Part shown: piece after piece, positions 1,765-19,762 of the stretch | Layout: each line of letters starts with the position of its first letter | Numbering within the stretch: position 1 is the stretch's first letter | From: Nevskiaceae bacterium | GTDB taxonomy: Bacteria; Pseudomonadota; Gammaproteobacteria; Nevskiales; Nevskiaceae | DNA length: 64,000 nt | Reading direction: 5' to 3' | Assembly: GCA_036379455.1 (NCBI GenBank) | Contig: DASVGQ010000054.1 | Coordinates: 277 to 64,276, forward strand | Made by a program: the position numbers and the translations under genes | Notes under the pieces: model-generated | What the model was told of the DNA's origin: nothing | What the model saw: the letters and a program-made list of their open reading frames with translations, nothing else | The model's database searches: none

Positions 1765-2255
1765 GATCACTTAGGTTGCCATGAGCCTGCAGGGAGTCTA
1801 CGCCAAGAGGAACGACAGAACCCCCCGACGAACGACGGAATCCGTGGTGGCTCGAGTTGACCTTCGCCGGCATCCGTCGGGCGAAGTGCGCGGCGGCCGT
1901 CGTGTCGCGTTGTTCGACGACGACGTGCCGTTGCCGCCTGGGGCTTACCGGGTTTTCGCCGCGCTTCATGGTCGATCTCCATCGAGTGTCGTGGAATGCA
2001 CGCCCTTGGTGTGTTTGCCGAACCGGATTGAGGGTGGGCTTGACGGCGGCAGGCAGGACCGACGCTTCAGTCTTCGTGCCCCTGCAAAGTTCGCGTTTCC
2101 GGGCGGGGCCGCGAGGCTTTGAACGAGGTGGCGGCAACAGCGCCGAAGGCTTCGATTGGGCGTGCGACAAACGGAGGCGCGCACCGTATTGCGCTGGGTT
2201 AGACTCGCTGCGTCGGCCCCGATGGGGTCGGGACAAGAACAGAGGGGGAGCGTAC

Positions 2256-3044
2256 ATGGATGGGTTGAAAGCCAAGGTGGCGATCATCACGGGTGGTGCC
2301 ACCCTCATCGGCGCGGGAGTGGCGCGCGTGCTTCACGCCAGTGGCGCCAGCGTGGTCATTGCCGACATCGACGCGACCGGAGGCAAGCGCGTGGTCGATG
2401 AGCTGGGCGCTAACGCCGTATTCCTGTCGACGGATATCACGAAGGACGCCGAGATCCAGAACTGTGTCGACCGCACGGTCGCGAAATTCGGCGGCGTCGA
2501 CATTCTCGTCAATCTTGCGTGCAGCTATCTCGACGACGGCATCAACTCGACGCGCGCCGACTGGCACGCGAGCCTTGACGTCAACCTGATCGGCGCCGTG
2601 GTCATGAGCAAGGCGTGTCGGCCGCACATGGTGGCGCGTGGCGGCGGGGCGATCGTGAACTTCAGCAGCATCAGCGCGAAGGTTGCCCAGACCGGCCGCT
2701 GGCTGTACCCGGTCGGCAAGGCGGCGGTCACGCAGCTGACGCGCAACATGGCACTTGATCTTGCCGCCGACCACATCCGCGTCAACTCGGTCGCTCCGGG
2801 ATGGACCTGGTCACGCATCATGGATGAACTGACGCAGCACGACCGCGCCAAGACCGATCGCGTGGCGGCACCGTTCCACATCCTCGGCCGGGTGGGCGAC
2901 CCTGACGAGGTGGGCAACGCGGTGGCGTTTCTGTGCTCGCCGCAGGCTTCGTTCATCACCGGCGCCAACCTGCCGGTCGACGGAGGATACGGTGCGCTGG
3001 GGCCCGAGCAAGGAGCTCCTGCAATTCCGTTGTTGACTCAGTGA
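2256..3044 (+). CDS. Short-chain dehydrogenase/reductase (SDR)
   Basis: ATG at 2256 preceded by AGGGGGAG. TGGATLIG dinucleotide fold, NLACSY, YPVGK catalytic Y-x3-K, PVDGG tail. Paralogous to the SDR at 11740..12588. The 5' part of track ORF 1857..3044 does not look coding. Confidence 0.88.
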   Translation: MDGLKAKVAIITGGATLIGAGVARVLHASGASVVIADIDATGGKRVVDELGANAVFLSTDITKDAEIQNCVDRTVAKFGGVDILVNLACSYLDDGINSTRADWHASLDVNLIGAVVMSKACRPHMVARGGGAIVNFSSISAKVAQTGRWLYPVGKAAVTQLTRNMALDLAADHIRVNSVAPGWTWSRIMDELTQHDRAKTDRVAAPFHILGRVGDPDEVGNAVAFLCSPQASFITGANLPVDGGYGALGPEQGAPAIPLLTQ

Positions 3045-3056
3045 AGGGGGAGACAC

Positions 3057-4556
3057 ATGAAGATCGCGGTCATAGGCGCAGGCTTTGCGGGCCTTAGCGC
3101 CGTCAAGGTGCTGACGCAGTTCGGACACGACGTCACGGTCTTTGAGAAGGCGCCGGACGTGGGTGGCGTGTGGAGCGCGACCCGACGTTATCCGGGCCTG
3201 CGTACGCAGAACAACAAGGGAACGTACTGCTTCAGCGACTTCCCGATGCCCGCCAGCTATCCCGAGTGGCCTTCCAGCGAGCAGGTCCAGAAGTACCTCG
3301 CGGATTACGTCCAGCATTTCAACCTCGGCGACAGGATCCAGCTGAACAAGGAGGTCATGAAGGCGGAGCCCAACGGTGACAAGGGCTGGCGCCTGACGGT
3401 ACGGGATACCCAGAGCAACGGGACCATTGAGCACGATGCGGAGCGCCTGGTCGTTGCGAATGGCATCTTCTCCAAGCCCTTCATCCCGCCCTACAAGGGG
3501 CGCGATGAGTTCGAGGCTGCCGGCGGCCATATCGGTCCACCCTCGGAATTCCACGACCTGGAACAGGTACGCGGCAAGAACGTGATCGTTGTCGGCTACG
3601 GAAAGTCCGCGTGCGACGCTGCAGCAAAGATCGGCGAAGCCGCGGCGTCGACCACCGTGGTGGCGCGTGAGCTGATCTGGAAGATGCCGCGCAAGATCAT
3701 GAACGTCCTCAATTACAAGTATTTGATGCTTACTCGCATGGGCGAGGGATTGTTCCCGTACCAACGGCGCAGGGGATTCGAGAAGTTTCTGCACGATGGC
3801 CCAGGCCGCGCCATGCGCAACAGCATGATCAACTCGCTGCAGTCGGTGGTCACGAAGCAGTACAAGCTCAAGGAGCGCGGGCTGGTGCCTCGCGGCAGCT
3901 TTGACCGTATCGCACGCAGCACCGTGTCGCTGGCATCGGACCAGCTCTATGAGCACGTGGAGCAGGGAACGACCGAGATCATCCGTGACTGCGAAATCAC
4001 GCGTCTGGGAGTCGACAAAGGCAAACCGGTCGCGGTCCTCAGCAACGGGCGCACGATTCCGGCGGATGCAGTGATCTGCGGCACCGGTTGGCAACAGGAG
4101 ACGCCTTTCTTCTCCAAGGAGATCGAAGCAAAGATCACCGACGGTGAAGGGAACTTCATGCTCTGGCGGCAGATTCTCCCGCTCGAGGTGCCCAACGTGA
4201 TGTTCTGTGGCTACAACTCATCCTTCTACAGCCCGTTGAGTGCGGAAGTGGCGTCGCTGTGGATCGCAACCTATCTGATGGGCGGCGTGAAGCTGCCACC
4301 GTTGGCAGAACGCCGCACGCGTATCGAGGAACGCCTCCGCTGGATGAAGGAACGGACGGAAGGACACCATGCGCGTGGAACCAACATCATTCCCTTCTCG
4401 ATGCACAACATCGACGAGATGCTCGATGAGATCGGAGCGAACGTATCGGCCCTGACACGGTTCAAGCAATGGCTGATGCCGACGAACGCGAAGGACTACC
4501 AGTCCGTGACGAAGCGATTGCTCAAGCGCCAACACGCTCCATCTGCCCATGCTTGA
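3057..4556 (+). CDS. FAD/NAD(P)-dependent class B flavoprotein monooxygenase (FMO-like)
   Basis: ATG at 3057 with GGGGGAG RBS, 12 nt after the SDR. Two Rossmann motifs (VIGAGFAGLS near the N-terminus, VVGYGKSACD mid-protein), 499 aa, the layout of FMO/BVMO-type enzymes. Confidence 0.8.
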   Translation: MKIAVIGAGFAGLSAVKVLTQFGHDVTVFEKAPDVGGVWSATRRYPGLRTQNNKGTYCFSDFPMPASYPEWPSSEQVQKYLADYVQHFNLGDRIQLNKEVMKAEPNGDKGWRLTVRDTQSNGTIEHDAERLVVANGIFSKPFIPPYKGRDEFEAAGGHIGPPSEFHDLEQVRGKNVIVVGYGKSACDAAAKIGEAAASTTVVARELIWKMPRKIMNVLNYKYLMLTRMGEGLFPYQRRRGFEKFLHDGPGRAMRNSMINSLQSVVTKQYKLKERGLVPRGSFDRIARSTVSLASDQLYEHVEQGTTEIIRDCEITRLGVDKGKPVAVLSNGRTIPADAVICGTGWQQETPFFSKEIEAKITDGEGNFMLWRQILPLEVPNVMFCGYNSSFYSPLSAEVASLWIATYLMGGVKLPPLAERRTRIEERLRWMKERTEGHHARGTNIIPFSMHNIDEMLDEIGANVSALTRFKQWLMPTNAKDYQSVTKRLLKRQHAPSAHA

Positions 4557-5277
4557 TGACGCCTGCTTGCGGCAGGCCTGAGAACGCATCGGAATTCGCA
4601 CCCGGGCGGCGTCCGCGCGATGTTCGCGTGGCAGGCGAGAGCGGGTCAGGTCTAGCGCGTTGGGGGCCGCAGGCTGATGAGACTGGATACCGGAGAAACT
4701 TGGTGCGCTGCGGCACGGCGCGCGGGTCGGTGTAGCTGCGAGGCGCCGTCTCGGTACGGCGTTTGCCGCCTCGCGTGCGTAACTTGTCCGTCGCTCGACG
4801 GAAGCGCGCACAGCCACGGTCCTGTGTGCGGCTTGAATTTGGGAGTGGTCGTCCGGCACGCGTTTGTGGCGCGCCGTGGTGCCATGTCGTGGTGAATGCG
4901 TCCCAGCGGGCATGTTTAAAGCGGCCGCGGGAGGCCATCGCTGCCAGCCTTCGTTCTTGCGGAAAAAAGCATAGAACGAGGTGGCTCGAGCGGCAGTCGG
5001 ATGGGGAAAACCCTCGCGATCAGTAGTTTGGTGGCGGTCCAGCCGTCAAGTGGCGCTATGCCGTGCATTCCGCGCGTCCGAGAGCCGTCGCGGGGGCCTG
5101 TTTCGTTGTCATGCTGTCGCGGCGTGCGACGCAACAGCGACGCGCCGTGGCTGTTGGACGATCTACGCAGAGCCACGCCTCACGGGTGTCAGTGATGTCA
5201 TGGACAGCGTGGGTACAATCGCGTTACTAATAGGAGAGGTGTCTGTCGAATTGACGATAGTCTTCTGGAGCTGAGAG

Positions 5278-7629
5278 ATGGCCGAACGGTCTTTCAAGGG
5301 TGAAGTCAAGAAGCTGCGCTTGGGCAAAGGGGATGTGTTCCATGGTGAGGGAATCATGGCCATCACCAAGGCACTTCTTGAGTCTGGCGTGTCCTATGTC
5401 GGCGGTTATCAGGGTGCGCCGATCTCGCATCTGATGGATGTGTTCAGCGACGCATCGGACATCTTGGCGGAGTACAACGTCCGCTTCGAGAACAGCGCGA
5501 ACGAGGCGGCTGCCGCGGCGATGCTGTCGGCTTCGGTGAACTATCCGCTGCGCGGGGCGGTAACGTTCAAGACCACCGTCGGCACGAACGTGGCGGCGGA
5601 CGCCCTGTCGAATCTGTCCTCGGGCGGCGTGACGGGAGGCGCGCTCATCATTCTGGGCGAAGACTACGGTGAAGGCTCCTCCATCATGCAGGAGCGCAGC
5701 CACGCATTCGCCATGAAGTCGCAGATGTGGCTGCTGGATCCGCGGCCGAACCTGACGAGCATCGTGAAGGCGGTAAAGGACGGGTTTGAGCTGTCCGAGG
5801 CGACCAATACGCCGGTGATGATGATGATGCGCATCCGTTCGTGCCACCTGCGTGGCACCTTCGTGTGCGATGACAACCGAGCTTCGACCTTCACTCCGAA
5901 GGAAGCGCTGGAACACCCGGTCCGCGACCTCACGCGTATCGTGCTGCCGCCGGCGAGTTTCCAGCACGAAGTGGAGAAGATCGAGGGGCGCTGGCCGCGG
6001 GCCGTACGGTTCATCCAGGAACACGAGCTCAACGAGTTCATTTCCGAGGATGCGGCGAACGTGGGCATCGTGACGCAGGGCGGCAGCTACAACGCCGTGA
6101 ACCGCGCGCTGCACCGCGTCGGGCTGTCGGACATGTACGGCAACTCGAAGATCCCGATCTTCGTGATGAATTGCGTCTATCCGTTGGTGGACGCTGAATT
6201 CGAACGCTTCTGCAAGGGTAAGCGGGCGATCCTGATCGTCGAGGAAGGCCAGCCGAACTTCATCGAGCAGAACGTTGCGGACATCCTGCGGCAACGCGAA
6301 ATCGACATCCGTCTGCATGGCAAGGATGTGCTGCCGCTGGCGGGTGATTACAACGTCGCGACGGTGTTTGTAGGCGTCCGCGATTTTCTCGTTGAATACG
6401 GCTTCGTCGAGCCAGGCAAGTTTCCCGACCCGGTGGCGGACGTGCATCCGGTCTCCTTGTTCGAGCTGCAACGTCGCAAGCAGATTCCGAAGGCTCATGC
6501 GGACGAGGTTTCGGCGGAGGTTGCCGAACAGCGCGCCAAGGTGCACAAGGTCCAGGCAGCGGCCGCGGCGGCCAAGGCGGCTACGAGAGCAGCTGCTGTG
6601 GCAAAACAGCCGGTACCTTCAGTGCAGCTCGCCGAGGTGGAGAAGGAACCGACGCTCGACGACACGGTTCAGGGTCGTCCGCCTGGTCTGTGCACGGGGT
6701 GCCCGGAACGGCCGATTTTCACGTCGATCATGCTCGTGGAGGAGCAGCTCGGCGTTCATCACATCGCGTCGGACATCGGTTGCAACCTGTTCTCGATCAT
6801 GCCGCCCTTCAACTTGGGCAACACGACGATGGGCTACGGCCTGTCGGGGGCGAGCTCGGAAGCGTTCAATGTGGCGCCGGGCAGCCCGGCGGCGGACAAG
6901 CGTGCGATCGCGATCATGGGCGACGGTGGTTTCTGGCATAACGGTCTGACGACCGGTATCGCGAACGCGGTGTTCAATCGCAGCGATAACGTGACCATCA
7001 TCGTCGACAACAACTACGCGGCGGCGACGGGAGGACAGGACATCCCGTCAACGCGCACGAACAGGCGCGCCATCCGCGACGCAGGTCACGCAATCGAAGA
7101 CGCGGTCAAAGGCGTAGGCGTGAAGTGGGTGCGCACGATCACGCGGACCTACGATCTCGAGAAGATGACGAAGACCCTGCGGGAGGCGTTGACAACGCAT
7201 ACGGACGGGCCGAAGGTCATCATTGCGCAGAGCGAATGCATGCTGAACAAGCAGCGCCGCGTCAAGCCGTTGAAACTCAAGGCCATTGCCGACGGCAAGC
7301 GGGTCGTCCGCGAGCGTTTCGGCGTCGACTCCGATACCTGCACGGGCGATCACTCGTGCATCCGCCTGTCGGGCTGCCCGTCGCTCACGATCAAGGAGAA
7401 CCCCGACCCGCTGCGGGAGGACCCGGTTACCACGGTTCTCGATAGCTGCGTGGGCTGTGGACACTGTGGTGAGATGGCACATGCAGCGGTGCTGTGTCCG
7501 TCCTTCTACAAGGCTTCGATCGTGAACAACCCGACGCCGTGGGACAAGCTGAGCGCACGCATGCGGATGTGGATCATCGCGCCGCTGCAGGCGATGGCGG
7601 CGCGACGCCGCGCGCGGTTCGCGTTCTGA
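5278..7629 (+). CDS. Indolepyruvate:ferredoxin oxidoreductase family, alpha-like subunit (TPP and 4Fe-4S binding 2-oxoacid oxidoreductase)
   Basis: 783 aa. TPP motif AIMGDGGFWHNG...IIVDNNYAAATGGQ. Cys clusters CTGCPERP, CTGDHSCIRLSGCPS and CVGCGHCGEMAHAAVLCPS. Low-complexity Ala/Lys linker in the middle. Confidence 0.85.
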   Translation: MAERSFKGEVKKLRLGKGDVFHGEGIMAITKALLESGVSYVGGYQGAPISHLMDVFSDASDILAEYNVRFENSANEAAAAAMLSASVNYPLRGAVTFKTTVGTNVAADALSNLSSGGVTGGALIILGEDYGEGSSIMQERSHAFAMKSQMWLLDPRPNLTSIVKAVKDGFELSEATNTPVMMMMRIRSCHLRGTFVCDDNRASTFTPKEALEHPVRDLTRIVLPPASFQHEVEKIEGRWPRAVRFIQEHELNEFISEDAANVGIVTQGGSYNAVNRALHRVGLSDMYGNSKIPIFVMNCVYPLVDAEFERFCKGKRAILIVEEGQPNFIEQNVADILRQREIDIRLHGKDVLPLAGDYNVATVFVGVRDFLVEYGFVEPGKFPDPVADVHPVSLFELQRRKQIPKAHADEVSAEVAEQRAKVHKVQAAAAAAKAATRAAAVAKQPVPSVQLAEVEKEPTLDDTVQGRPPGLCTGCPERPIFTSIMLVEEQLGVHHIASDIGCNLFSIMPPFNLGNTTMGYGLSGASSEAFNVAPGSPAADKRAIAIMGDGGFWHNGLTTGIANAVFNRSDNVTIIVDNNYAAATGGQDIPSTRTNRRAIRDAGHAIEDAVKGVGVKWVRTITRTYDLEKMTKTLREALTTHTDGPKVIIAQSECMLNKQRRVKPLKLKAIADGKRVVRERFGVDSDTCTGDHSCIRLSGCPSLTIKENPDPLREDPVTTVLDSCVGCGHCGEMAHAAVLCPSFYKASIVNNPTPWDKLSARMRMWIIAPLQAMAARRRARFAF

Positions 7630-7664
7630 TTCTGCTGAGAACCACCTTCTGGAAGAGGTTCGTC

Positions 7665-9242
7665 ATGGTCGTTGACCCCATCAAGATTGCCGTTCTCGCC
7701 ATGGGTGGAGAGGGCGGTGGTGTGCTGGCTGACTGGATCGTGGATCTGGCCGAAGGAAACGGCTGGTTCGCGCAGACGACTTCGGTGCCGGGCGTCGCGC
7801 AGCGCACGGGTGCGACCATCTACTACCTCGAGCTGTTCCCGGGAGCGAACGACTCGAAGGCGAAACAGCCGGTGTTCGTTGAATCTCCCCTGCCGGGTGA
7901 TGTGGATATCGTCATCGCTTCGGAGCTCATGGAGGCGGGTCGTGCGCTCAAGCGCGGCTTTGTGAGCGCGGACCGTACGACGGTCATCTCTTCTACGCAC
8001 CGCGTGTACACGAAGCGCGAGAAGATGGAAATGAGCGACGGGCGCATCGACAGCGATGCGCTGTTGAAGCAGGTGGAGAAAGCGGCAAAACGCTACATCC
8101 GGTTCGACATGGCGAAGCTTGCTGGCGACGCCGGAGCGGTGGTCAGCGCGTGCATGTTCGGCGCGCTGTGTGGGGCCGGCGTACTGCCGTTCACACGCAA
8201 GCAGTTCGAGGACACGATCGTCAAGGGTGGGAAGGGCGTGAAGTCGAGCCTGAAGGCTTTCGACCTGTCTTTTTCCAAGGCGCAGGACGCGAAGGAGTCC
8301 GCGTCAGGTCCAGCCGGCAAACGCCACGTCGATGAAAGCGCGCCGCGGGATCTGAAGACGGACAGTGCGGCGGTGCAGGCGCTGCTGCAACGCGTCCGCG
8401 GATATCCGGAGAACCTGCAGTGGATCCTTACGGAGGGAGTCCGGAAGGTGATCGACTACCAGGATCCGGCCTACGGCAAGTTATACATGGATCGCATGGA
8501 TGCCTTGGCCGCGGCGCCGGGCGGAAAAGACGTGCAGCTGCTACATGAAACAGCGCGCTATCTGGCGCTGTGGATGGCATATGACGATACGTTCCGTGTA
8601 GCGGACCTGAAAACGCGAAGCAGCCGTTTTCAGCGCGTACGTGACGAGGTCCACGCGCACCCCGATCAAGTGTTGACCATCGGCGAGTACATGCATCCCC
8701 GCATCGAGGAAATCTGTGATTCGATGCCCGCGTGGCTTGGCCGCTGGATCCTCAAGCCGAATTTCGCGCATCGCTTCGTCCGGCTGTTCACGCTCAAGGG
8801 CCGCGTCATAAAGACCACCTCGCTGACCGGCTTCCTCATGCTGTACATGATGGCGCGCTTCGGCTATCGCTTCCGTCGGATATCGCTTCGCTACAAGATC
8901 GAGACGCGGCAGATCGATGCTTGGTTGGAACGGCTCCGCAAGCTGGCAGGCGTCGATCCGGCTCTGGCGTTGGAAGCGGCCAAGTGCCAGAGGCTGATCA
9001 AGGGCTACAGCAATACCCATGCGCGAGGCCTGATGAACTTCAACACCATCATGAAAGTCATCGACCAGAACATGAACCACTTGGCGCCGGCTCAGTTGGC
9101 TGAAATGCGCAACGCGGCGCTCGGTGATGAACGCGGCAAGAAGCTCTTTGAATGCCTGCAGCGCAACGGATTTTCGGTGGACGGGTTGTTCACCGATCCT
9201 GAGCACCACCGTCACAGCCTGTATCCGGCTCCCAGCGCATGA
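7665..9242 (+). CDS. Indolepyruvate:ferredoxin oxidoreductase family, beta-like subunit with long C-terminal extension
   Basis: ATG at 7665 (RBS GGAAGAGG) within ORF 7494..9242. N-terminal IAVLAMGGEGGGVLADW is the PFOR-gamma/IorB GxGGxG motif. The roughly 330-aa C-terminal extension resembles the tail of the large fused IOR-family proteins of aerobic proteobacteria. Confidence 0.82.
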   Translation: MVVDPIKIAVLAMGGEGGGVLADWIVDLAEGNGWFAQTTSVPGVAQRTGATIYYLELFPGANDSKAKQPVFVESPLPGDVDIVIASELMEAGRALKRGFVSADRTTVISSTHRVYTKREKMEMSDGRIDSDALLKQVEKAAKRYIRFDMAKLAGDAGAVVSACMFGALCGAGVLPFTRKQFEDTIVKGGKGVKSSLKAFDLSFSKAQDAKESASGPAGKRHVDESAPRDLKTDSAAVQALLQRVRGYPENLQWILTEGVRKVIDYQDPAYGKLYMDRMDALAAAPGGKDVQLLHETARYLALWMAYDDTFRVADLKTRSSRFQRVRDEVHAHPDQVLTIGEYMHPRIEEICDSMPAWLGRWILKPNFAHRFVRLFTLKGRVIKTTSLTGFLMLYMMARFGYRFRRISLRYKIETRQIDAWLERLRKLAGVDPALALEAAKCQRLIKGYSNTHARGLMNFNTIMKVIDQNMNHLAPAQLAEMRNAALGDERGKKLFECLQRNGFSVDGLFTDPEHHRHSLYPAPSA

Positions 9243-10261
9243 GCGTCGCGTCGGACGGATCGACGGTTCTGACGCTGAAGGTGATCGAGGCCAGACAGCT
9301 CAACCCACTCATCAGGAAATTCCGACTCGCGGCGCCTGACGAGCGTGCTCTGCCGACGTGGTCTGCGGGATCGCATATCCAGGTTCAGGTGACTCTGCCG
9401 GATGGGGCGCAGGACTGGCGCCATTACTCGCTCATCAACCTCGAGCGGGCGGACGCGAGCAACGGCATGGTGCACAAGCAATCGCCGCGTACCGAATACA
9501 CGATCGCCGTGCGCCGCGAGAATCCTGGCCGCGGTGGTTCAGCGTTCATGCATGAGAAGCTGCGGGAAGGAGACACGCTCTCCGTGATCGCGCCGAAGAA
9601 CGATTTTCCTCTGACAGGTACGAACGGCACTACGGTCTTGCTGGCAGGGGGGATTGGCATCACGCCTCTCACGAGCATGGCCGCGTACTGCCACGGCCAC
9701 GGTCGCCCGGTACGCATGTGTTACGCGGGCCGATCGCGTGGGCTCATGGCGTTCATCCCCGAGTTGCAGGCCTTGTTGGGTGATGAGCTGCAGGTTCATG
9801 CCGATGACGAGCACGAGGGAAAAGTGCTGGATATCGACGCTTTTCTGGAAAGCTGCGGTGACGCGGATCATCTCTACGTGTGCGGGCCGAAGCCGATGCT
9901 TGACGCGGCGCTCAAGGCAACCAGCGCGCATGGATGGGACCCCGGACGCGTGCATTTCGAGCTGTTCGTCACGGGCGCCACGGCGTCGGGCGACCGCGCC
10001 TTCGAGGTGGTCTTGGCGCGATCGGGCAAGACCTTCATATGCCGCGCCGACCAGACCTTGCTCGATGCGCTCATCGAGCATGGTTGTGATCCGATGTACG
10101 ACTGCACGCGCGGCGAGTGCGGCGTGTGCACCACCGGCGTATTGGAAGGTGAGATCGATCATCGCGATTACGTGCTGTCGCAGGCGGAGCGGGATAGCGG
10201 AAAGATGATGCAGATCTGCGTATCGCGCGCGAAGGGCGACCGGATCGTGCTGGACATCTAG
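9239..10261 (+). CDS. PDR/VanB-type oxidoreductase (FMN-binding, NAD-binding, C-terminal plant-type 2Fe-2S)
   Basis: ATGA overlap with the preceding stop (9239-9242). WRHYSL flavin motif, LLAGGIGITPL NAD fold, C-terminal CTRGECGVCTTG...ICVS 2Fe-2S ligands. 340 aa. Confidence 0.88.
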   Translation: MSVASDGSTVLTLKVIEARQLNPLIRKFRLAAPDERALPTWSAGSHIQVQVTLPDGAQDWRHYSLINLERADASNGMVHKQSPRTEYTIAVRRENPGRGGSAFMHEKLREGDTLSVIAPKNDFPLTGTNGTTVLLAGGIGITPLTSMAAYCHGHGRPVRMCYAGRSRGLMAFIPELQALLGDELQVHADDEHEGKVLDIDAFLESCGDADHLYVCGPKPMLDAALKATSAHGWDPGRVHFELFVTGATASGDRAFEVVLARSGKTFICRADQTLLDALIEHGCDPMYDCTRGECGVCTTGVLEGEIDHRDYVLSQAERDSGKMMQICVSRAKGDRIVLDI

Positions 10262-10609
10262 AACGGCGCTGTCGTCGTATCGACGCTAACAAGATCCGCA
10301 CACGGGTACTTGTGCCCGCGCAACATACGTGCGGCTCGGCAGCAAGTTCCGCCGGTGCGCGGGCTCTGCACCGCCCGAGGTCTCAGCCCGCCCCAGCCCT
10401 GCTACGAATGGCGGTAGCCTCGCTTGAACGAGGTCACCGCATGACCCGTCCCGTCCAGGGCCGGTAGCTCGGTGCCGTATCGGCGGTGCGGTGCGGCCGC
10501 ACACGTCAGCGCACTGCGTATTCCGGTGAGCGCCGGGCGACTCGTGAACCGCGAACAACCGGACGTCTGACGACCGTTACGGCATACAGAGACACTCGGC
10601 ACTTTCGGC

Positions 10610-10655
10610 GTGACCGAGCTTCCCGCGCGACGCGATGTGCGCGGGTGACCGAGCT
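10610..10655. repeat. Hairpin flanked by an 11-nt direct repeat
   Basis: GTGACCGAGCT (10610-10620) and GTGACCGAGCT (10645-10655) bracket the inverted repeat CCCGCGC...GCGCGGG, in the 473-bp non-coding spacer between the reductase and cyclase genes. Confidence 0.4.
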
Positions 10656-10734
10656 GTCGCCAGCCCGGTCGGCGCGAATCTTCGCTTGTCGCTGCTCGTG
10701 GCGATAACGGGCCTCCGGGCTTCTGAGCCTCCGT

Positions 10735-11517
10735 TCAGGGAACCAGCGCCAGAACGCGAAGCGGGCTGCCCGAGCCGTGCTCGATCTTGAGCGGCGCAGC
10801 GATGATGACGGATCCGGTGGGTGGCAGCTTGTCGAGGTTGTTGAGGCACTGCAGACCGAAGCGGCCGTTGCCGTGCATCAACGTGTGGCAGGGGTACGGA
10901 AGCGGCCAGCCGAAGGCTTGCCCGGCGTCCGTGTTGATCGTTTCCACGCCGAAGCCGTGGACGTTGCGTTCCTTGATGAGCCACTCGACCGCTTCCTGCG
11001 TCGGGCCCGGCGTGTGCGCACCATCCGCCTTCACGTTGGCATAGGAGTCCGGATTGGTTTCGAGCCGCTTGCTCCAGCCCGTGCGGAACAGGACCCAGTT
11101 GTCGTTCGGGATGCGGCCGTGCTTGGCTTCCCACTGCTTGAGATAGTCCGGCGTCAACAGCCAGTCGTCGTTGCGGCTGACAGGTTCCGTCGCGTCCACG
11201 ACCACCGCGCAGGCGATGAACTTGTGCGGATCGATCGTATCCACGGAGTTGTGCGGAAGATCCTTGCCCGATGACCAATGAATCGGCGCGTCGAAATGCG
11301 TGCCTGTGTGTTCGCAGCACGTGAAGTTGTTCCAATACCACGTGATGCCACGCTCGTCGTAGTGCGAGATTTCCTCGATCTTGAACGCGCTCGCCTGACC
11401 AAACTGTGGAGGAAGCACCAGCTGCGGGAACTTCGGTGACAGCGTATGCGTCAGGTCGATCATCCGGAAGTTGCCCTTCGCCAGAAGCTGCGCGAAATTC
11501 ATCGATTCGTTTGCCAT
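10735..11517 (-). CDS. Cyclase family hydrolase (kynurenine formamidase / isatin hydrolase family)
   Basis: ATG at 11517 preceded by GGAGGA. Metal-binding signature CEHTGTHFDAPIHW (HxGTHxDxPxH). 260 aa. Confidence 0.85.
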   Translation of the reverse strand: MANESMNFAQLLAKGNFRMIDLTHTLSPKFPQLVLPPQFGQASAFKIEEISHYDERGITWYWNNFTCCEHTGTHFDAPIHWSSGKDLPHNSVDTIDPHKFIACAVVVDATEPVSRNDDWLLTPDYLKQWEAKHGRIPNDNWVLFRTGWSKRLETNPDSYANVKADGAHTPGPTQEAVEWLIKERNVHGFGVETINTDAGQAFGWPLPYPCHTLMHGNGRFGLQCLNNLDKLPPTGSVIIAAPLKIEHGSGSPLRVLALVP

Positions 11518-11739
11518 CGTGTCCTCCATTGAAAGATTGGTCGGCTGTGAAAAATACGTTTGCGTGCCGGTGCACGGCTCGTTGACCCGCGCCTGCCCGT
11601 CACGCGACGGTTCCATCTCATTGTTCTCCATCCTACCGCGATGCTGCGTTGGCGAGCCCGCCTGCGCCTTGTACCCGTGATGGGCGCGAGGGCTGGACTC
11701 TGTCGCAAGCTGTACGCGGATGCACGTGTGAACGAATAC

Positions 11740-12588
11740 CTATCCCGCGGGCTCGCTACCCCCGCCGTTGCTCTTGAGCACTCGTTCGAACCAGATGCGC
11801 GGTGAAATGCCTTGATCGGGTCCGAGGATGGAGAACCCGCCGTCAACGGGAAAGTCCACGCCGGTGACCCAGGACGCCGCGTCACTGGCGACGAAGGCGA
11901 TGACGTTGCCGATCTCTGCGCCGTTGCCGATGCGCCCCAGCGGGTGGACGAGCGCCCCTACGCGGTCCGCGTCGCGCCGGGAACCGTGACTCATGCGCTC
12001 GGTAGCAGGGGACCACGTCCAGGCGGGTGACACCGCTACGGCCCGGATGCCTTGCGGCGCCAGCGTTACCGCCAAGTTCTTCGTGAACTGCAGCATCGCG
12101 GCCTTCGAAGCCGGGTAGAGGGCGCGTCCCATTGCGCCGAACTTTCCTCCGGTGCTGCCCATGTTCACGACGACGCCGCCGCGCGGCATGTGCGGAACCG
12201 CCTGCTGCGTGAAGATCGCGGCGGAGATCAGGTTGACGCCGAGCGTGTCGTGCCACTGTGCGCGTGTCGATGCGAGGCCGTTGTCGACGTAGCTGCAGGC
12301 GTTGTTGACGAGGATGTCCAGATGTCCGAACTGCGCCAGGGTTTGTGTGATGCACCGCTCGACGTCGTCGTCCTTCTGGATGTCGGTGGCGCAGTACAGC
12401 GCCTTGCCGCCGTGGCTGCGCAACTCTTCCGCCACGGCTTCGCCCAGCGACGCATTGATGTCTGCGATGACCACCGCCGCGCCGCAGCGTGCCAGGACGC
12501 GTGCCGTATCCGCTCCCACGCCCTGAGCGCTTCCCGTGACGATGGCCGTCCTGCCGTCGAGATCGGCGGGTTTCGCCGTGCTGCTCAT
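11740..12588 (-). CDS. Short-chain dehydrogenase/reductase (SDR), paralog of 2256..3044
   Basis: TGSAQGVG fold, NNACSY, YPASK, PVDGG. Shares the unusual strings ACSY-D-G-STRA-WH, SP-WTWS and LGP-QG with the SDR at 2256..3044. Start chosen at ATG 12588 (MSSTAK). Confidence 0.85.
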   Translation of the reverse strand: MSSTAKPADLDGRTAIVTGSAQGVGADTARVLARCGAAVVIADINASLGEAVAEELRSHGGKALYCATDIQKDDDVERCITQTLAQFGHLDILVNNACSYVDNGLASTRAQWHDTLGVNLISAAIFTQQAVPHMPRGGVVVNMGSTGGKFGAMGRALYPASKAAMLQFTKNLAVTLAPQGIRAVAVSPAWTWSPATERMSHGSRRDADRVGALVHPLGRIGNGAEIGNVIAFVASDAASWVTGVDFPVDGGFSILGPDQGISPRIWFERVLKSNGGGSEPAG

Positions 12589-12761
12589 TTCGCGTTTACC
12601 TCGCTGTCCGGCCATGAAGCTGTGGACCCCTTGCGTGTCGCCGCATCAACGGCTCACGTGCTCCGACACGCGCCGGATGGTGCGACTTCGCCGCGCGCGC
12701 GTGGCTGGAGACGCTGATTCGTCGAGCTGCCGGCGTGTGACATGGGGCGTCCTGCAAGAGA

Positions 12762-13382
12762 TCATGCGCCCCGTAAGCGCTGGTCGGCGGCTGCACCATC
12801 AAGGATGTCGGCGATAAGGCTCATGCTGTGCAGCGACGCTCGGTGGACCGCGGGATCTGCGGCCGAACAGGCGTCCGCGGCGACTCCTACCTCGAAGCCC
12901 ATGTCCACGGCATGCCGCACCGTGCTCTCCACGACCGAATGTGTCGCGACGCCGGCGACCACCAGCCGCGTCGCGCCGATGACGCGCAGCGTCTCCTCCA
13001 GCGGCGAGCCGAAGAACGCGTTGATCCGCGAGTGCTTGACGATGAACTCACTCAGGCTGCTGGTGTCAGGGGCGAGCGTTGGATGGAATTCCGCGCCCCA
13101 GCTGCCTTCCGCGCATGCGCCGATGCGCGCGACGTTCCGGAAGATCGGTGCGTTCTTCAGGATATCCGCGCCGTCCGCTCGAAACGCGACGCGCACATGC
13201 ACGATCGGAACCGCGCACTCGCGCGCCGTCACGAGCAGGCGGTGCGCTGCGGCCAGCAGCCGCGCGCGCTCGGGGCTGTCCTCGCCGATGCCGACGCGGA
13301 TCTTGCCGCGCTCGTCAAGGACGTCGTTCTGGTAGTGCAGCGCGAGGAGCGCGATCGGCGCCGGATCTCTCGCGTCTTTCAC
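12762..13382 (-). CDS. Isochorismatase-family hydrolase
   Basis: 206 aa. GTG start overlapping the upstream TGA (GTGA). Family pattern ...VHVRVAF...KHSRINAFFGSPLEETLR..GATRLVVAGVATHSVVESTVRHA. By my hand alignment, the position where the amidase branch of this family has its Cys nucleophile reads Ser. Confidence 0.8.
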   Translation of the reverse strand: MKDARDPAPIALLALHYQNDVLDERGKIRVGIGEDSPERARLLAAAHRLLVTARECAVPIVHVRVAFRADGADILKNAPIFRNVARIGACAEGSWGAEFHPTLAPDTSSLSEFIVKHSRINAFFGSPLEETLRVIGATRLVVAGVATHSVVESTVRHAVDMGFEVGVAADACSAADPAVHRASLHSMSLIADILDGAAADQRLRGA

Positions 13383-13915
13383 ATGTACAGCTCGATGGCC
13401 TCGTAGGCGCCGTCACAGTCGATGAGATCAACGCGCTTGAGCTTGATCTTCCAGCTGTCGCCGTCGGCGACCAGTTTGTGGACGCAGGATCCGGCCCGAT
13501 GGAACATCGTTTCGCGCCGCCACTCCGTCATGTGGATGACCGAGCGGACGAGCAGGCAGCCATCGGAATCCGTTCCGTCCACGGTGACGTTGCCGATCAG
13601 GCGCGACGCGTAAGAACGCGGCTGCTGCGACCAGCGCCGCGGGCTGTCGAGGATGCGCATGCGCACGCGACGCAGCACGTCGTCGTCCCAGCACAGCGAC
13701 AGCGCGTCATAGGGGCTCTGCTGATCGCGGCTGCGCGGGATCCAGTACATGCCGTCCGGCGTCCACAGCTTGAGCCACGCGTCCCACTGGCGCGTGTCCA
13801 GAAGCCGCGCCTCGTGGTAGAGGAATTGGCTGAGCTGTTGATAGGTATCGGCCGGCACCGCGACGCGCTTGGTCGCCTCGGTCGAATAGTCGAACTTTTC
13901 TTCCATCAGCATCAT
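13379..13915 (-). CDS. Aromatic ring-hydroxylating dioxygenase, beta (small) subunit
   Basis: 178 aa. ATG at 13915 with GAGGAG RBS. YHEARLLDTRQWDAWLKLWTPDGMYWIP is the typical SnoaL-like RHO beta N-terminal core. Directly downstream of the alpha subunit. Confidence 0.88.
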   Translation of the reverse strand: MMLMEEKFDYSTEATKRVAVPADTYQQLSQFLYHEARLLDTRQWDAWLKLWTPDGMYWIPRSRDQQSPYDALSLCWDDDVLRRVRMRILDSPRRWSQQPRSYASRLIGNVTVDGTDSDGCLLVRSVIHMTEWRRETMFHRAGSCVHKLVADGDSWKIKLKRVDLIDCDGAYEAIELYM

Positions 13916-13942
13916 GGTGATTTCTCCTCGGATCGCGGTGGC

Positions 13943-15253: not shown

Positions 15254-15273
15254 GTGTGTCGATCCTCCGTTGC

Positions 15274-16485: not shown

Positions 16486-16511
16486 GTTCCCCTCCCAAGT
16501 ACCGGTGGACT

Positions 16512-16575
16512 CCTGATCATGGTGGCGAGCTGCGTGCAACGCTATCCAGTTCTGGCAGTTTTGAGCCTGATCATG
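16512..16575. promoter_or_regulatory. 10-bp direct repeat CCTGATCATG x2 in the divergent AraC / SBP-dioxygenase promoter region (candidate operator)
   Basis: Identical copies at 16512-16521 and 16566-16575, 54 bp apart (about five helical turns). Each contains the palindrome TGATCA. They lie between the start codons at 16485 (minus strand) and 16619 (plus strand). Confidence 0.35.
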
Positions 16576-16618
16576 CAACATCTCCGCGATCTGGCTGTCT
16601 CGGGGGAGAGGTGATGCC

Positions 16619-18790: not shown

Positions 18791-19644
18791 CAGTTGCCCT
18801 CGAATTTCGGCTTCTGCTTGGCGACGAAGGCGCGGTAGGCACGCGCGAAATCTTCCGTCAGCATGCACAGCGCCTGCGCCTGGGCTTCAGACTCGATCGC
18901 CTGGTCGATGGTCATCGACCACTCCTGGTGGAGCATGGTCTTGGTGATGCCGTTGGCGAAGCTCGGGCCCTGCGTGAGGCGGGCGGCGAGGGCCTGCGCG
19001 TCGGCGAGCAGGGACTCGGGTTCGCACAGGCGGTTGAAGAAGCCCCATCGCTCGCCTTCTTCGCCGCCCAGACTGCGCCCGGTATACAGCAGCTCGCTGG
19101 CGCGCCCCTGCCCGATCAGACGCGGGAGCATGGCGCAGGCGCCCATGTCGCAGCCCGCCAGCCCGACGCGGTTGAAGAGAAAGGCCGTCTTGCTGCGCGC
19201 GGTGCCGACGCGCATGTCCGACGCCATCGCAAGGATGGCGCCGGCGCCAGCGCATACGCCGTCCACCGCCGCGACGATCGGCTGCGGGCAGGCGCGCATC
19301 ATCTTCACGACTTCGCCGGTCATGCGCGTGAAAAGCAGGAGTTCTGGAGCCTTCATGCGCACCAGCGGGCCGATGATCTCGTGTACGTCACCGCCCGAGC
19401 AGAAGTTCTCGCCGGCGCCCGTCACCACCACGGCCTTGACGTCCTCCGCCCACTTGAGCTCATGGAAGAGATCGCGCAGCTCCGCGTAGCTCTCGAAGGT
19501 CAGTGGGTTCTTTCGCTCCGGCCGGTTGAGCGTGATCGTCGCCACCTGCTCGCGCACGTCCCAGCGGAAGTGTCGCGCCGCGTAGCTTGCAAGCTGCCGG
19601 CGGTTGCCGGCCACCAAGCCGGGATCAACGCGTCCGTCGTTCAT
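18790..19644 (-). CDS. Enoyl-CoA hydratase/isomerase (crotonase) family protein
   Basis: 284 aa. [16 protein letters not shown]...[15 protein letters not shown] is the crotonase fold signature. Confidence 0.88.
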
Positions 19645-19762
19645 CGAGTTGCTCCTTCATCGTTTTACCTCGCGACCAAGCGGTGCCGCTGCCGGAGAAC
19701 CGGTGTCAGGTCGTTCGGACGCTCCGCGCTGCGGCTGGATATGCCTTTGCCGCCCGCTGCGG

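Follow-up and report, generated by a model that had tools for sequence, protein, structure and literature searches.

An iadABC-type operon of a Nevskiaceae bacterium: IadAB as a candidate isatinate:acceptor oxidoreductase forming 2-aminobenzoyl-CoA

In the iad loci of Variovorax, Achromobacter and Bradyrhizobium, the published gene order is iadR-iadA(iorA)-iadB(iorB)-iadC-iadD-iadE, and IadAB is described as an exclusive marker of iad-type loci. IadC is the NADH-dependent reductase of IadDE, as IadC, IadDE and NADH together convert IAA in vitro, and it can be partly replaced by host reductases. IAA induced iotA/iorB of B. japonicum 30.7-fold and 7.6-fold and IadA/IadB of V. boronicumulans 2.5-fold and 3.5-fold, respectively. 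In a locus-deletion mutant of V. paradoxus CL014, conversion of IAA to anthranilate was restored by nine genes, iadC-K2, which do not include iadAB; a C7H7NO species was also detected. Free anthranilate can thus arise from isatinate in the absence of IadAB. No function assignment for IadAB was found in open-access literature text. Another IOR-family protein, EdcC (KC8_05315), acts in the aerobic degradation of the oestrogen A-ring, where it decarboxylates a pathway-specific 2-oxoacid and converts it to a CoA ester with no ligase.

Here we analysed a 64-kb stretch of Nevskiaceae DNA (the window), in which three adjacent genes at positions 5278-10261 are, judged by sequence, homologues of the already named iadA, iadB and iadC of auxin/indole-degradation clusters. 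We propose, with a probability of about 0.6, that the IadAB homologues convert isatinate to 2-aminobenzoyl-CoA and that the IadC-type reductase mainly serves a Rieske oxygenase. The gene set is already known, while the proposed function of IadAB is new and testable; if true, the CoA thioester of 2-aminobenzoate would be formed without an ATP-dependent ligase.

Operon layout and enzyme class

The three genes form one operon on the plus strand in the order alpha-beta-reductase. They encode an IadA-like alpha subunit of a TPP/[4Fe-4S] 2-oxoacid:acceptor oxidoreductase (5278-7629, 783 aa, TGA at 7627-7629), an IadB-like beta subunit with an N-terminal OFOR domain-III/gamma fold and a helical DUF6537 extension (7665-9242, 525 aa) and an IadC-like class IA (PDR-type) FMN/NADH/plant-type [2Fe-2S] reductase (9239-10261, 340 aa). 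The 35-nt gap between the alpha and beta genes (7630-7664) holds the ribosome-binding site GGAAGAGG, the beta gene lies in a different frame, and the beta stop and the reductase start overlap in the ATGA at 9239-9242, so that everything the original prediction stated on the three ORFs, the gap, the frames and the overlap holds at the sequence level. The longest extension of the beta ORF reaches GTG 7494; ATG 7665 was taken as its start because the homologue matches begin at query residues 1-6 and a 525-aa gene is called in L085, a comparison locus 95% identical to the window. The GC3 values of the alpha, beta and reductase genes (0.76-0.81) indicate that all three are real genes. When the window was aligned with L085, good conservation within the 720-790-nt intergenic region was confined to a block of ~95 nt directly 5' of the alpha start (5183-5277, plus strand). 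This block, which matched neither an Rfam family nor a sigma-70 consensus, is probably the promoter or the 5' leader of the operon. The ORF at 4981-5274 had no gene call in L085 and no Pfam match.

The alpha subunit, which shares 60-70% identity with its counterparts in the comparison loci, contains a TPP_enzyme_C domain with GDGG at residues 534-537 and N564-N565. This GDGG...NN motif and 12 cysteines (175, 458, 461, 488, 640, 674, 680, 686, 710, 713, 716 and 726) are invariant in 75 homologues, among which residues 351-450 form a variable linker; the cysteines would be enough for three [4Fe-4S] clusters. The beta subunit carries AMGGEGGG at residues 12-19 and the Pfam domains POR and DUF6537, and it matches NF006179/PRK08312 over its full length (670 bits; cut-off 348). 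Residues ~1-210 of its AF2 model matched the gamma subunits OorC/PorC with a target-normalised TM-score of 0.75, and its DUF6537 part had no match in the PDB. The TPP motif, the 12 invariant cysteines and the domain-III fold in beta agree with the IOR-like TPP/Fe-S enzyme originally proposed, and they establish IadA/IadB as a predicted thiamine-diphosphate, three-[4Fe-4S] 2-oxoacid:acceptor oxidoreductase.

The division into two genes had been regarded as an anomaly within a usually fused family. Fused proteins (PRK13030/PRK13029) do exist, but they constitute a distant paralogous family, against whose profile (cut-off 816) alpha and beta scored 132 and 76 bits, respectively, and the plasmid-borne fused proteins are 24-28% identical to beta. 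Separate genes are the rule in the IadAB-type family: NF006179, the curated NCBIfam subfamily to which beta belongs, has >8000 members, and no comparison locus in which both subunits could be read had them fused.

The reductase and its electron partner

The reductase contains FAD_binding_6, NAD_binding_1 and, at its C-terminus, a Fer2 domain with the motif Cx4Cx2Cx29C. Its best match in the PDB is 7ylr_A (330 aa, E 9.8e-132), presumably the crystal structure of IadC. The Rieske oxygenase beta and alpha genes (13379-13915 and 13943-15292, minus strand) encode distant relatives of IadE and IadD by homology. The best PDB matches of this alpha subunit are 9o71_A and 7yls_B (E ~1e-102; the next is 1e-37), and the alpha and beta subunits are ~40% and 36% identical to Variovorax IadD and IadE. 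This oxygenase is the presumed partner of the reductase, which is, as originally pointed out, the sole candidate reductase for it in the island.

To place these genes in a wider context, 82 IOR loci were surveyed, with neighbour labels assigned by tblastn with a small query panel. The reductase and the Rieske alpha gene occurred together in 37 loci, the reductase alone in one (at a contig end), the Rieske alpha gene alone in seven and neither in 37 (Fisher 5e-15, a value that overstates independence because the loci are phylogenetically related). The order IORa-IORb-RED-RHOa-RHOb was found in 37 loci, and their reductases are 55-64% identical to that of the window in nearly all cases (58% in L048). 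The same range applies to the gene that follows iadB in most loci of the Variovorax type, while the reductases of three Alcaligenaceae loci, where the gene directly precedes RHOa and lies ~8 kb from IORb, are 44-49% identical. That the reductase tracks the Rieske oxygenase across the 82 loci identifies it as the oxygenase's reductase rather than a general IOR acceptor. This phyletic pattern and the strong homology to the characterised IadC suggest that its main job would be to deliver electrons to the IadDE-like oxygenase.

The original prediction had also coupled the two enzymes into one redox unit, in which isatinate electrons would flow from the [4Fe-4S] clusters of alpha to the [2Fe-2S]/FMN centres of the IadC-type protein and on to NAD+ or directly into the Rieske oxygenase; the first oxygenation would then be paid for by an intermediate of the pathway. 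The beta/reductase ATGA overlap recurs in L023, L080 and L085-L087, the reductase of the window is kept in the IOR operon though the Rieske genes are on the other strand, and there is no free ferredoxin gene in the island. In L080, the genes RHOa-RHOb-ACMR-IORa-IORb-RED form one operon on one strand. In seven iad-type loci the Rieske genes directly follow IORb with no reductase homologue even at E <= 1; the IOR itself may conceivably donate electrons there. A further parallel is the phenylglyoxylate:NAD+ oxidoreductase of Azoarcus evansii, an OFOR-family enzyme that is NAD-linked via extra flavin/Fe-S subunits. Against this coupling, 44 of the 82 IOR loci have no reductase, and the IOR normally must therefore use another acceptor; the position of the Alcaligenaceae reductase follows RHOa, not IORb; the beta and reductase genes are usually separated by 12-22 nt and do not overlap; and NADH alone suffices for IadC in vitro, where host reductases can also partly take its place in other tests. 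We thus consider the redox unit unlikely and do not retain the view of the PDR-type protein as a dedicated IOR acceptor module, although in the window it may be a candidate acceptor for the IOR.

The thioester source and the substrate of IadAB

A gene for a cyclase-family (Pfam Cyclase), Mn-dependent amidohydrolase (10735-11631, minus strand) is convergent with the reductase gene and lies 474 bp downstream of it. Translation probably begins inside this ORF and yields ~260 aa, the length of the L085 gene call. Its matches in the PDB are isatin hydrolases, namely RsIHA (5nmp, E 6.4e-123), 5nna/5nnb and 4j0n. The hydrolase of the Ralstonia IOR locus has one mismatch to 5NMP over 262 residues and is the crystallised RsIHA; the window's protein is 69% identical to it. 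An isatin hydrolase homologue was found in 62 of the 82 IOR loci, and this link spans differing upper pathways (Rieske/iad type, styrene-monooxygenase/iif type or none). Directly after IORb there is a 4HBT thioesterase gene (28 loci) and/or a PRK08255 aroyl-CoA hydroxylase gene (20 loci), and the frequent pairing with a thioesterase implies that the CoA ester may often be transient only.

The minus strand at 17621-22905 carries a predicted 2-aminobenzoyl-CoA lower pathway, made up of an acyl-CoA dehydrogenase (ACAD, 17621-18868), an enoyl-CoA hydratase (ECH, 18790-19644), an SDR (19763-~20536) and an ACMR-type protein (20536-22905; PRK08255, 1337 bits, cut-off 1078), and the set also includes a PRK08258 match of 501 bits. 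ACMR is the aminobenzoyl-CoA monooxygenase/reductase. The ACMR-SDR-ECH-ACAD set is followed by an AbmG-type ligase gene in 14 of 22 complete metagenome loci. Such a ligase occurs in 14 of the 19 complete ACMR loci without IOR, a ligase-like ORF is nearby in at most one of the 23 IOR+ACMR loci, and no ACMR locus has both an AbmG-type ligase and an IOR (Fisher 2.7e-6, not corrected for kinship of the loci). In two Paraburkholderia loci (L015 and L019), IOR, thioesterase and isatin hydrolase genes stand alongside an AbmG-type ligase gene 8-9 kb away. Neither an AMP-ligase motif nor a ligase homologue was found in the 64-kb window, which bears out the description of a CoA-ester pathway without a ligase and leaves the IOR as the sole visible thioester source for the ACMR/beta-oxidation-like genes.

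In the proposed pathway, the neighbouring isatin hydrolase would supply isatinate (2-aminophenylglyoxylate); IadAB would carry out its oxidative decarboxylation, with CoA receiving the 2-aminobenzoyl group; and the product would be consumed directly by the ACMR/beta-oxidation-like genes at 17.6-22.9 kb. This step would stand in for the ligase that, in classical abm clusters, activates 2-aminobenzoate with CoA at the cost of ATP, and the IadC-type protein would pass NADH electrons to the IadDE-like oxygenase encoded on the opposite strand. The gene neighbourhoods make isatinate the most likely substrate of IadAB, a choice well motivated by the adjacent RsIHA orthologue, the way the IOR pair recurs in different genera together with genes for isatin hydrolase, thioesterase and ACMR-type proteins, and its mutual exclusivity with AbmG-type ligases in ACMR clusters.

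Two other substrate assignments were weighed. First, the IOR might act on another 2-oxoacid of the pathway (such as indole-3-glyoxylate or a ring-cleavage or side-chain product) or, with a thioesterase, serve as a net oxidative decarboxylase yielding free anthranilate. EdcC acting on a meta-cleavage product is a precedent, the conserved Paraburkholderia module consists of IOR, thioesterase and isatin hydrolase only, and the reported end product of iad strains is free anthranilate. However, the window lacks a thioesterase homologue and contains the ACMR set, which would consume a CoA ester. Ring-cleavage enzymes are absent from the minimal Paraburkholderia module, where isatinate is therefore the sole 2-oxoacid at hand, and the ligase/IOR exclusivity in ACMR clusters argues for use of the CoA ester. 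We regard this assignment as quite improbable. Second, the pair is annotated in all databases as a conventional indolepyruvate/arylpyruvate:ferredoxin oxidoreductase, which would turn transaminated aromatic amino acids into indoleacetyl-CoA or arylacetyl-CoA, its clustering being incidental or regulatory. Alpha partially matches TIGR03336, and distant members in Ruegeria (42-46% identity) adjoin aminotransferase and aldehyde dehydrogenase genes. Yet both subunits score far below the equivalog cut-offs (IOR_alpha 290 vs. 650.9 bits; IOR_beta 27 vs. 205.8 bits), the island has no aminotransferase or arylacetyl-CoA (paa) genes, the IOR is consistently linked to genes for isatin hydrolase, aroyl-CoA hydroxylase and thioesterase and is mutually exclusive with the AbmG-type ligase, and the inducer IAA is a downstream product, not a precursor, of indolepyruvate. 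This conventional role is very improbable.

The remaining genes of the island include an SDR gene in the Rieske operon (11740-12615, minus strand; adh_short_C2, PRK08265), a candidate dihydrodiol or dioxindole dehydrogenase, and a gene for an isochorismatase-family hydrolase (12762-13382, minus strand; Pfam Isochorismatase), which is present only in the window and L085 and had no homologue in the 82 comparison loci. The genes at 15274-16620 (minus strand) and 16619-17599 (plus strand), for a periplasmic solute-binding protein and an AraC/AndR-like regulator, respectively, agree with the L085 gene calls. Upstream of the operon, an IifB-like SDR, whose domain begins near 2259, precedes a flavin-containing monooxygenase at 3057-4556 (together 1857-4556, plus strand). 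In Ralstonia, Burkholderia and Providencia loci, an SDR 57-64% identical to this one precedes an indole oxygenase that resembles styrene monooxygenases, and the window's pair is a candidate second indole-oxidising system. The window also contains aa3 oxidase genes, and the host is aerobic.

Comparison with described systems

The window shares with the IorA/IorB enzymes of Pyrococcus and other anaerobes (TIGR03336/TIGR03334) the TPP domain, the ferredoxin-like 2x[4Fe-4S] domain in alpha, the POR/domain-III beta and the predicted reaction type (2-oxoacid + CoA -> acyl-CoA + CO2 + 2 e-). It differs in its low equivalog scores, in the ~100-residue variable linker of alpha, in a beta subunit of 525 aa instead of the ~200 of IorB-type proteins, which is due to DUF6537, and in its oxygenase-rich cluster in an aerobic host. 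Such a setting had been called unusual for this enzyme family, but the iad loci and EdcC are precedents. Like the window IOR, EdcC lies among oxygenases in an aerobe and its CoA ester goes to beta-oxidation-like enzymes, whereas it is described as one gene and its substrate is an aliphatic meta-cleavage product.

We take EdcC to be of the fused type. PadEFGHI of Azoarcus/Aromatoleum, the phenylglyoxylate:acceptor (NAD+) oxidoreductase of an anaerobic pathway, converts an arylglyoxylate and CoA to an aroyl-CoA and CO2. It is an OFOR-family enzyme of five subunits (POR/KOR type) linked to a flavin/Fe-S module. Likened by description, its chemistry is the direct analogue of the reaction proposed here, although the window has an IOR-type alpha/beta pair. 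The window reductase has the same order of FMN-binding, NAD-binding and C-terminal plant-type [2Fe-2S] domains as the class IA reductases PDR (2PIA) and VanB, but it is much nearer to IadC/7ylr (E 1e-131) than to PDR 2PIA (E 3.5e-49).

The three-gene order is shared with the iad loci of Variovorax, Achromobacter and B. japonicum (iotA/iorB, bll3411/bll3410), an IadI-type isatin-hydrolase gene is near in both, and identity to the Variovorax type is 60-70% for alpha, 54-58% for beta and 55-64% for the reductase. In contrast to those loci, the window has an AraC-type regulator and no MarR repressor, lacks the IadF ligase and IadG thiolase of side-chain removal, carries its Rieske genes, ~40% identical to IadDE, on the opposite strand, and joins the island to the ACMR/beta-oxidation-like set and the FMO/IifB-like SDR pair; in a rough NJ tree its beta falls in the thioesterase/ACMR-type clade, not in the Variovorax iad clade. 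These differences fit indole or isatin, not IAA, as the substrate. With the abm clusters, the window shares an ACMR-SDR-ECH-ACAD set, with 60-80% identity to examples from metagenomes and genomes; there, the AbmG ligase gene is usually downstream of ACAD, while the window has the IOR pair instead of a ligase.

Gene organization and enzyme class

The organization of the three open reading frames (ORFs) at 5278–10261 was as first described. The alpha ORF (5278–7629, plus strand, 783 aa) and the beta ORF (7665–9242, plus strand, 525 aa, ATG start) lie in different frames and are separated by a 35-nt spacer that carries a GGAAGAGG ribosome-binding site, and the reductase ORF (9239–10261, plus strand, 340 aa) starts within the beta stop codon (ATGA). 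The GC3 values of the three ORFs (0.76–0.81) match those of the neighboring genes. A GTG at 7494 was ruled out as the beta start in favor of the ATG at 7665 on account of the ribosome-binding site, the N-termini of homologues and the gene call in L085, a 95 %-related contig. Of the 720–790-nt intergenic region, the window and L085 have kept only the last ~95 nt before alpha (5183–5277) in common and have diverged elsewhere. This conserved block, which contains TGATGTCA and TACAAT, is probably a promoter/operator. A consensus promoter scan upstream of alpha and an Rfam scan of 1–24 kb gave no match. The ORF at 4981–5274 was rejected as a gene, as it has no Pfam match, is uncalled in L085 and lies in an unconserved region.

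The alpha/beta pair can be assigned securely to the IOR branch of the 2-oxoacid:ferredoxin oxidoreductase superfamily, given its TPP motif, invariant cysteines, POR/DUF6537 domains and gamma/domain-III fold. Alpha matched Pfam TPP_enzyme_C (E 6e-16), and its GDGG (residues 534–537) and N564–N565 fit GDG-X(24–27)-NN, with the core residues invariant among 75 aligned homologues. Also invariant in this alignment were 12 alpha cysteines, including C710-x2-C713-x2-C716...C726-P and C674/C680/C686-P, which would provide enough ligands for three [4Fe-4S] clusters (one near TPP and two in a ferredoxin-like domain); the Ala-rich linker at residues 351–450 was poorly conserved. Beta contains the Pfam domains POR (residues 14–202) and DUF6537. 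In its AlphaFold (AF2) model (mean pLDDT 74), residues ~1–210 have the gamma/domain-III fold, with target-normalised TM-scores of 0.66–0.76 to OorC, PorC and the OGOR gamma subunit (about 0.75 for OorC/PorC), and a fold search with this model found no relative of the DUF6537 half in the PDB. DUF6537 (beta ~235–500, DNA 8365–9165) was predicted to be all-helical (pLDDT mostly 80–95) and also forms the C-terminal part of fused IOR-family proteins. A phmmer search of the PDB with alpha gave no match at E ≤ 0.001. Judged by profile scores, neither protein is a canonical IorA/IorB equivalog: alpha reached 290.3 bits against TIGR03336 (equivalog cut-off 650.9) and beta 27.2 bits against TIGR03334 (cut-off 205.8).

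The original prediction regarded the split into two genes as unusual. Separate genes are the norm in the comparison loci: in the 80 genome loci found by beta alignment and those from an exact look-up, alpha and beta were separate wherever both were readable, with a gap of usually 2–30 nt. The protein search returned at least 8000 beta relatives at E ≤ 1e-20, and all 120 among the matches listed were 495–528 aa long with the same two domains. The closest relatives suggested an affinity with Burkholderiales. Beta scored 670.3 bits against the curated model NF006179/PRK08312 (cut-off 348), its residues 4–501 covering positions 10–508 of 514; this model is titled "indolepyruvate oxidoreductase subunit beta family protein" and describes a long beta with DUF6537. 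Alignment to the fused families PRK13030/PRK13029 (~1170–1196 aa, cut-off 816), as originally proposed, yielded only 132 bits for alpha and 76.5 bits for beta. Alpha spans positions 56–654 of the fused model and beta 727–1157, so that the gene boundary corresponds to the linker of the fused form. Fused IOR-family proteins on plasmids were 24–28 % identical to beta, which makes them distant paralogues rather than an ancestor that broke in two. An origin of the split by pseudogenisation or frameshift was rejected, because the genes are separate wherever readable, beta matches NF006179 over its full length and the fused family is a distant paralogue.

Identity with iadABC and the role of the reductase

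The trio is iadA-iadB-iadC, an already known gene set that the original prediction did not name. In Variovorax, Achromobacter and Bradyrhizobium, the iad locus opens with iadR-iadA (iorA/iotA)-iadB (iorB)-iadC (2Fe-2S reductase)-iadD-iadE, and iadA/iadB have been described as exclusive markers of iad-type loci. They are signature genes of this type of auxin-degradation locus, the basis of Variovorax root-growth protection, and among the Bradyrhizobium genes most strongly induced by indole-3-acetic acid (IAA): induction by IAA was 30.7-fold and 7.6-fold for iotA/iorB of B. japonicum, and 2.5-fold and 3.5-fold for IadA/IadB of V. boronicumulans. Among our comparison loci, 37, mostly from Variovorax and other Comamonadaceae, had the order IORa-IORb-RED-RHOa-RHOb (IOR alpha and beta, reductase, Rieske oxygenase subunits), and nearly all of their reductases were 55–64 % identical to that of the window (58 % in L048). 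The reductases of three Alcaligenaceae loci were 44–49 % identical and did not adjoin IORb. The genes called iadA/iadB in Pseudomonas sp. LY1, and dhoAB from the WHOP island, proved to be different and were set aside.

The reductase has the Pfam order FAD_binding_6, NAD_binding_1 and C-terminal Fer2, with the motif Cx4Cx2Cx29C, and by its domains it is a class IA (PDR-type) oxygenase reductase; its flavin is expected to be FMN rather than FAD by analogy with IadC and PDR. Its best PDB match was 7ylr_A (330 aa, E 9.8e-132), and PDR itself (2PIA) matched at E 3.5e-49. From the chain length and the neighboring entry 7yls ("Rieske domain protein"), we infer that 7ylr is the published IadC structure. 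IadC was solved at 1.68 Å, with FMN, NADH and [2Fe-2S] domains over residues 1–329, and in vitro IadC together with IadDE and NADH converts IAA.

The PDR-type protein had been proposed as the electron acceptor module of the IOR, and a survey of their adjacency had been suggested. Across the 82 IOR-seeded loci, RED and RHOa were both present in 37, RED alone in one (at a contig end), RHOa alone in seven and neither in 37 (Fisher 5e-15, phylogeny ignored); the reductase thus follows the Rieske oxygenase and is not a universal companion of the IOR. In the three Alcaligenaceae loci it directly precedes RHOa, 8 kb from IORb. Where IORb and RED are neighbors, they are usually separated by a 12–22-nt gap, and the 4-nt overlap of the window is shared only by L023, L080 and L085–L087. 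The co-occurrence pattern, the spacing and the Alcaligenaceae position argue that the reductase is the partner of the Rieske oxygenase and that the IOR normally functions in its absence, and lend no support to the acceptor-module proposal. The island encodes no further Fe-S/flavin electron carrier besides the reductase, the IOR and the Rieske protein. In seven iad-type loci (L033, L035, L051, L056, L074, L079, and L082; ~10000–13500), IORb is followed by Rieske alpha/beta within 4–43 nt, and a search as permissive as E ≤ 1 found no IadC-type reductase homologue within 10 kb. In these loci the oxygenase either draws on a reductase encoded elsewhere or receives its electrons from the IOR, so that an electron link from IOR to oxygenase stays conceivable. 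The most far-reaching reading is that the IadAB-type enzyme is an isatinate:acceptor oxidoreductase (CoA-aminobenzoylating) whose electrons, in this island, pass via the translationally coupled IadC-type protein to the Rieske oxygenase or NAD+, giving ATP-free entry into the aminobenzoyl-CoA pathway. We consider it improbable, at roughly one chance in seven; if it were true, the first oxygenation would draw its power from decarboxylating a late intermediate, and the missing isatin-to-anthranilate enzyme of indole/auxin catabolism would be found.

The phenylglyoxylate enzyme PadEFGHI has five subunits of the POR/KOR type; as the IOR of the window is a two-subunit IOR-type enzyme, any resemblance to Pad would be functional only. 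EdcC, a member of the IOR family, works in aerobic, oxygenase-rich pathways and delivers CoA esters without a ligase. An oxygen-sensitive IOR-family enzyme among oxygenases, once thought unusual here, therefore has a precedent.

Isatin hydrolase, ligases and the source of the thioester

A cyclase-family isatin hydrolase (10735–11631, minus strand) lies 474 bp downstream of the reductase. Its best matches in the PDB are, without exception, isatin hydrolases (5NMP at E 6e-123, followed by 5NNA/5NNB and 4J0N), and 5NMP is RsIHA of Ralstonia solanacearum, which was assayed through isatinate formation. The cyclase of the Ralstonia locus L003 differs from 5NMP at one of 262 residues and is 69 % identical to the isatin hydrolase of the window. 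L003 begins with genes for an SDR, a styrene-monooxygenase-like oxygenase, a flavin reductase, the isatin hydrolase, an FAD amine-oxidase-family protein, a porin and an AraC regulator. Next come IORa-IORb, a 4HBT thioesterase and a PRK08255 "salicylyl-CoA 5-hydroxylase/oxidoreductase" of the ACMR (aminobenzoyl-CoA monooxygenase/reductase) family, and thereafter a gentisate-dioxygenase-like cupin, an FAA-family hydrolase, a CN-hydrolase and an Asp/Glu-racemase-type isomerase. Variants of this layout recur in Pseudomonas, Burkholderia, Cupriavidus, Providencia, Klebsiella and Xenorhabdus, and Paraburkholderia retains only IORa-IORb-(thioesterase)-isatin hydrolase.

An isatin hydrolase homologue was found near the IOR in 62 of the 82 loci, a thioesterase in 28 and an ACMR-type gene in 20. 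The constant partner of the IOR is thus isatin hydrolase, whose product isatinate (2-aminophenylglyoxylate) is a 2-oxoacid, and the constant downstream partners act upon or hydrolyse aroyl-CoA esters. In a rough NJ tree of beta, the context types were interleaved, with the protein >50 % identical throughout, suggesting that the IOR is a module common to varied upper (Rieske/iad, flavin monooxygenase/iif) and lower pathways.

Some individual loci merit description. L003 and L004 (both Ralstonia pseudosolanacearum), L016, L018 and L008 carry an apparently complete ligase-free route, consisting of an iif-like indole oxygenase, RsIHA, IORab, thioesterase, PRK08255 hydroxylase, gentisate/5-aminosalicylate-dioxygenase-like cupin, CN-hydrolase, isomerase and FAA-family hydrolase, which could account for the gentisate-type intermediates described long ago for indole breakdown. 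The region is broken in L004, just before alpha, by an IS element (transposase genes). L001 (Variovorax paradoxus GCA_030811855) has the non-iad layout IORab-thioesterase-ACMR-like-cupin, and other V. paradoxus, e.g., L032, have the iad layout; if one V. paradoxus genome had both, the paralogous IORab pairs would bear on iadAB knockouts. More distant IORab pairs, with 38–46 % identity to beta and set among other genes for aromatic compounds, are found in L088 (Ruegeria pomeroyi DSS-3 megaplasmid) and L089 (Delftia acidovorans plasmid). In L088, a thioesterase gene and two MarR genes come after the pair, and there is a divergent cupin/FAA hydrolase/CN-hydrolase/racemase/aminotransferase/aldehyde dehydrogenase set. 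In L089, the neighbors of the pair are genes for a PDR/VanB reductase, for a Rieske protein and for protocatechuate, and part of the region, alpha gene included, is repeated beyond an IS1071-family transposase gene. The substrate range of the IORab family is probably wider than isatinate.

The window contains a complete ACMR-SDR-enoyl-CoA hydratase-acyl-CoA dehydrogenase set (17621–22905). A search of all 64 kb with a relaxed AMP-ligase motif and by tblastn with AbmG-type (2-aminobenzoate-CoA ligase) and IadF-type (AMP ligase of the iad locus) queries found neither the motif nor a ligase homologue; the remainder of the window consists of housekeeping genes. In the reciprocal direction, a metagenome scan was seeded on the ACMR alignment. 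The 22 ACMR loci with at least 7 kb on both sides comprised 14 with an AbmG-type ligase only, three with an IOR pair only, none with both and five with neither; the corresponding numbers for all 80 were 31, 5, 0 and 44, the last mostly short contigs. When the IOR-seeded ACMR loci were pooled with these, a ligase-like ORF occurred in at most one of 23 IOR+ACMR loci vs. 14 of 19 ACMR loci without IOR (Fisher 2.7e-6, indicative only, as kinship of the phylogenetically non-independent loci is ignored). Such exclusivity is as expected of an IOR that takes over from the ligase in supplying 2-aminobenzoyl-CoA. Counter-evidence comes from two Paraburkholderia loci, in which an AbmG-type ligase lies 8–9 kb from the IOR module. 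The view that the IOR is the only visible source of the thioester is strengthened considerably by the ligase-free 64 kb and the exclusivity in ACMR loci. So too is the suggestion that isatinate is converted to 2-aminobenzoyl-CoA, for which the genomic signs are the isatin hydrolase in 62 of 82 loci, the thioesterase and ACMR neighbors and the ligase exclusivity.

Proposed route and comparison with the iad locus

In the route that we propose for the island (roughly 1.9–22.9 kb), the IadDE-like Rieske oxygenase with its IadC-like reductase, a single-component flavin-containing monooxygenase (FMO) with an IifB-like SDR, or both would oxidize indole or a close relative, and an SDR would carry the product to isatin. 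Isatin hydrolase is predicted to form isatinate, given its 69 % identity to a characterized enzyme, and the IadAB-type IOR would convert isatinate to 2-aminobenzoyl-CoA + CO2 + 2 e-. ACMR and the beta-oxidation-like enzymes would then carry on, as their equivalog-level family match suggests. The IifB-like SDR and FMO genes lie at 1857–4556, in that order. The Ralstonia, Burkholderia and Providencia clusters differ in having a two-component styrene-monooxygenase-like oxygenase and flavin reductase at the FMO position, and no FMO homologue was found in the 82 comparison loci; the FMO may have taken the place of the indole oxygenase without being its orthologue.

The open iad literature assigns no reaction to IadA/IadB and names no enzyme for the step from isatinate onward, and in the open-access literature IOR, isatin and aminobenzoyl-CoA are combined only by coincidence. 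According to a review, Cupriavidus requires a 2-aminobenzoyl-CoA cluster to degrade indole. In V. paradoxus CL014, iadC-K2 (nine genes, without iadAB) restored anthranilate production in a locus-deletion mutant, with C8H7NO3 and C7H7NO species along the way. Free anthranilate can thus arise without IadAB, perhaps via non-oxidative or chemical decarboxylation. The frequent thioesterase beside the IOR suggests that the CoA ester is hydrolysed in many organisms, before or after hydroxylation.

The neighborhood evidence yields a concrete prediction (isatinate + CoA + acceptor -> 2-aminobenzoyl-CoA) that is specific, testable and apparently unpublished. If true, it would explain the ligase-free entry of indole, isatin and IAA carbon into aminobenzoyl-CoA and 5-hydroxyanthranilate/gentisate-type routes, extend the substrates of the IOR family in aerobes to arylglyoxylates, allow thousands of proteins annotated as "indolepyruvate oxidoreductase" to be corrected, and guide the engineering of complete auxin/indole mineralisation cassettes.

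L085 keeps the order of the island, with rpmB/rpmG and two cytochrome c genes on its left flank. Two tandem overlapping cytochrome c genes, conserved in L085, are found at 437–1205 of the window, between rpmB/rpmG (seen in L085) and the island. An isochorismatase-family hydrolase gene (12762–13382, minus strand), whose stop overlaps the Rieske beta gene, occurs in the window and L085 but in none of the other loci. A gene for an IS21-type IstB ATPase and, next to it, an ORF that reaches the right end of the window (together 62393–63983, minus strand) are the sole mobile-element trace in the window and lie far from the island.

The window shares with the iad locus the iadA-iadB-iadC order, the IadC-type reductase and a cyclase-family amidohydrolase (IadI-type/isatin hydrolase). 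In the iad locus, however, IadDE are encoded directly downstream, whereas the Rieske genes of the window lie at 13379–15292 on the minus strand and their products are ~40 and 36 % identical to IadD and IadE. The closest PDB relatives of the Rieske alpha subunit were 9o71_A and 7yls_B (E ~1e-102; next 1e-37), both of which are taken to be IadD, though the depositor names are silent on that. The regulator is of the MarR type (iadR) in the iad locus but of the AraC type in the island. For iadF, iadG and iadR, we found no AMP-ligase motif or IadF homologue in the 64 kb and no thiolase or MarR gene among the annotated island genes. That the island lacks iadF/iadG and a MarR regulator speaks against IAA itself as its substrate. 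The trio of the window is a known gene set in a new mosaic context, and its enzyme family is widespread and misannotated.
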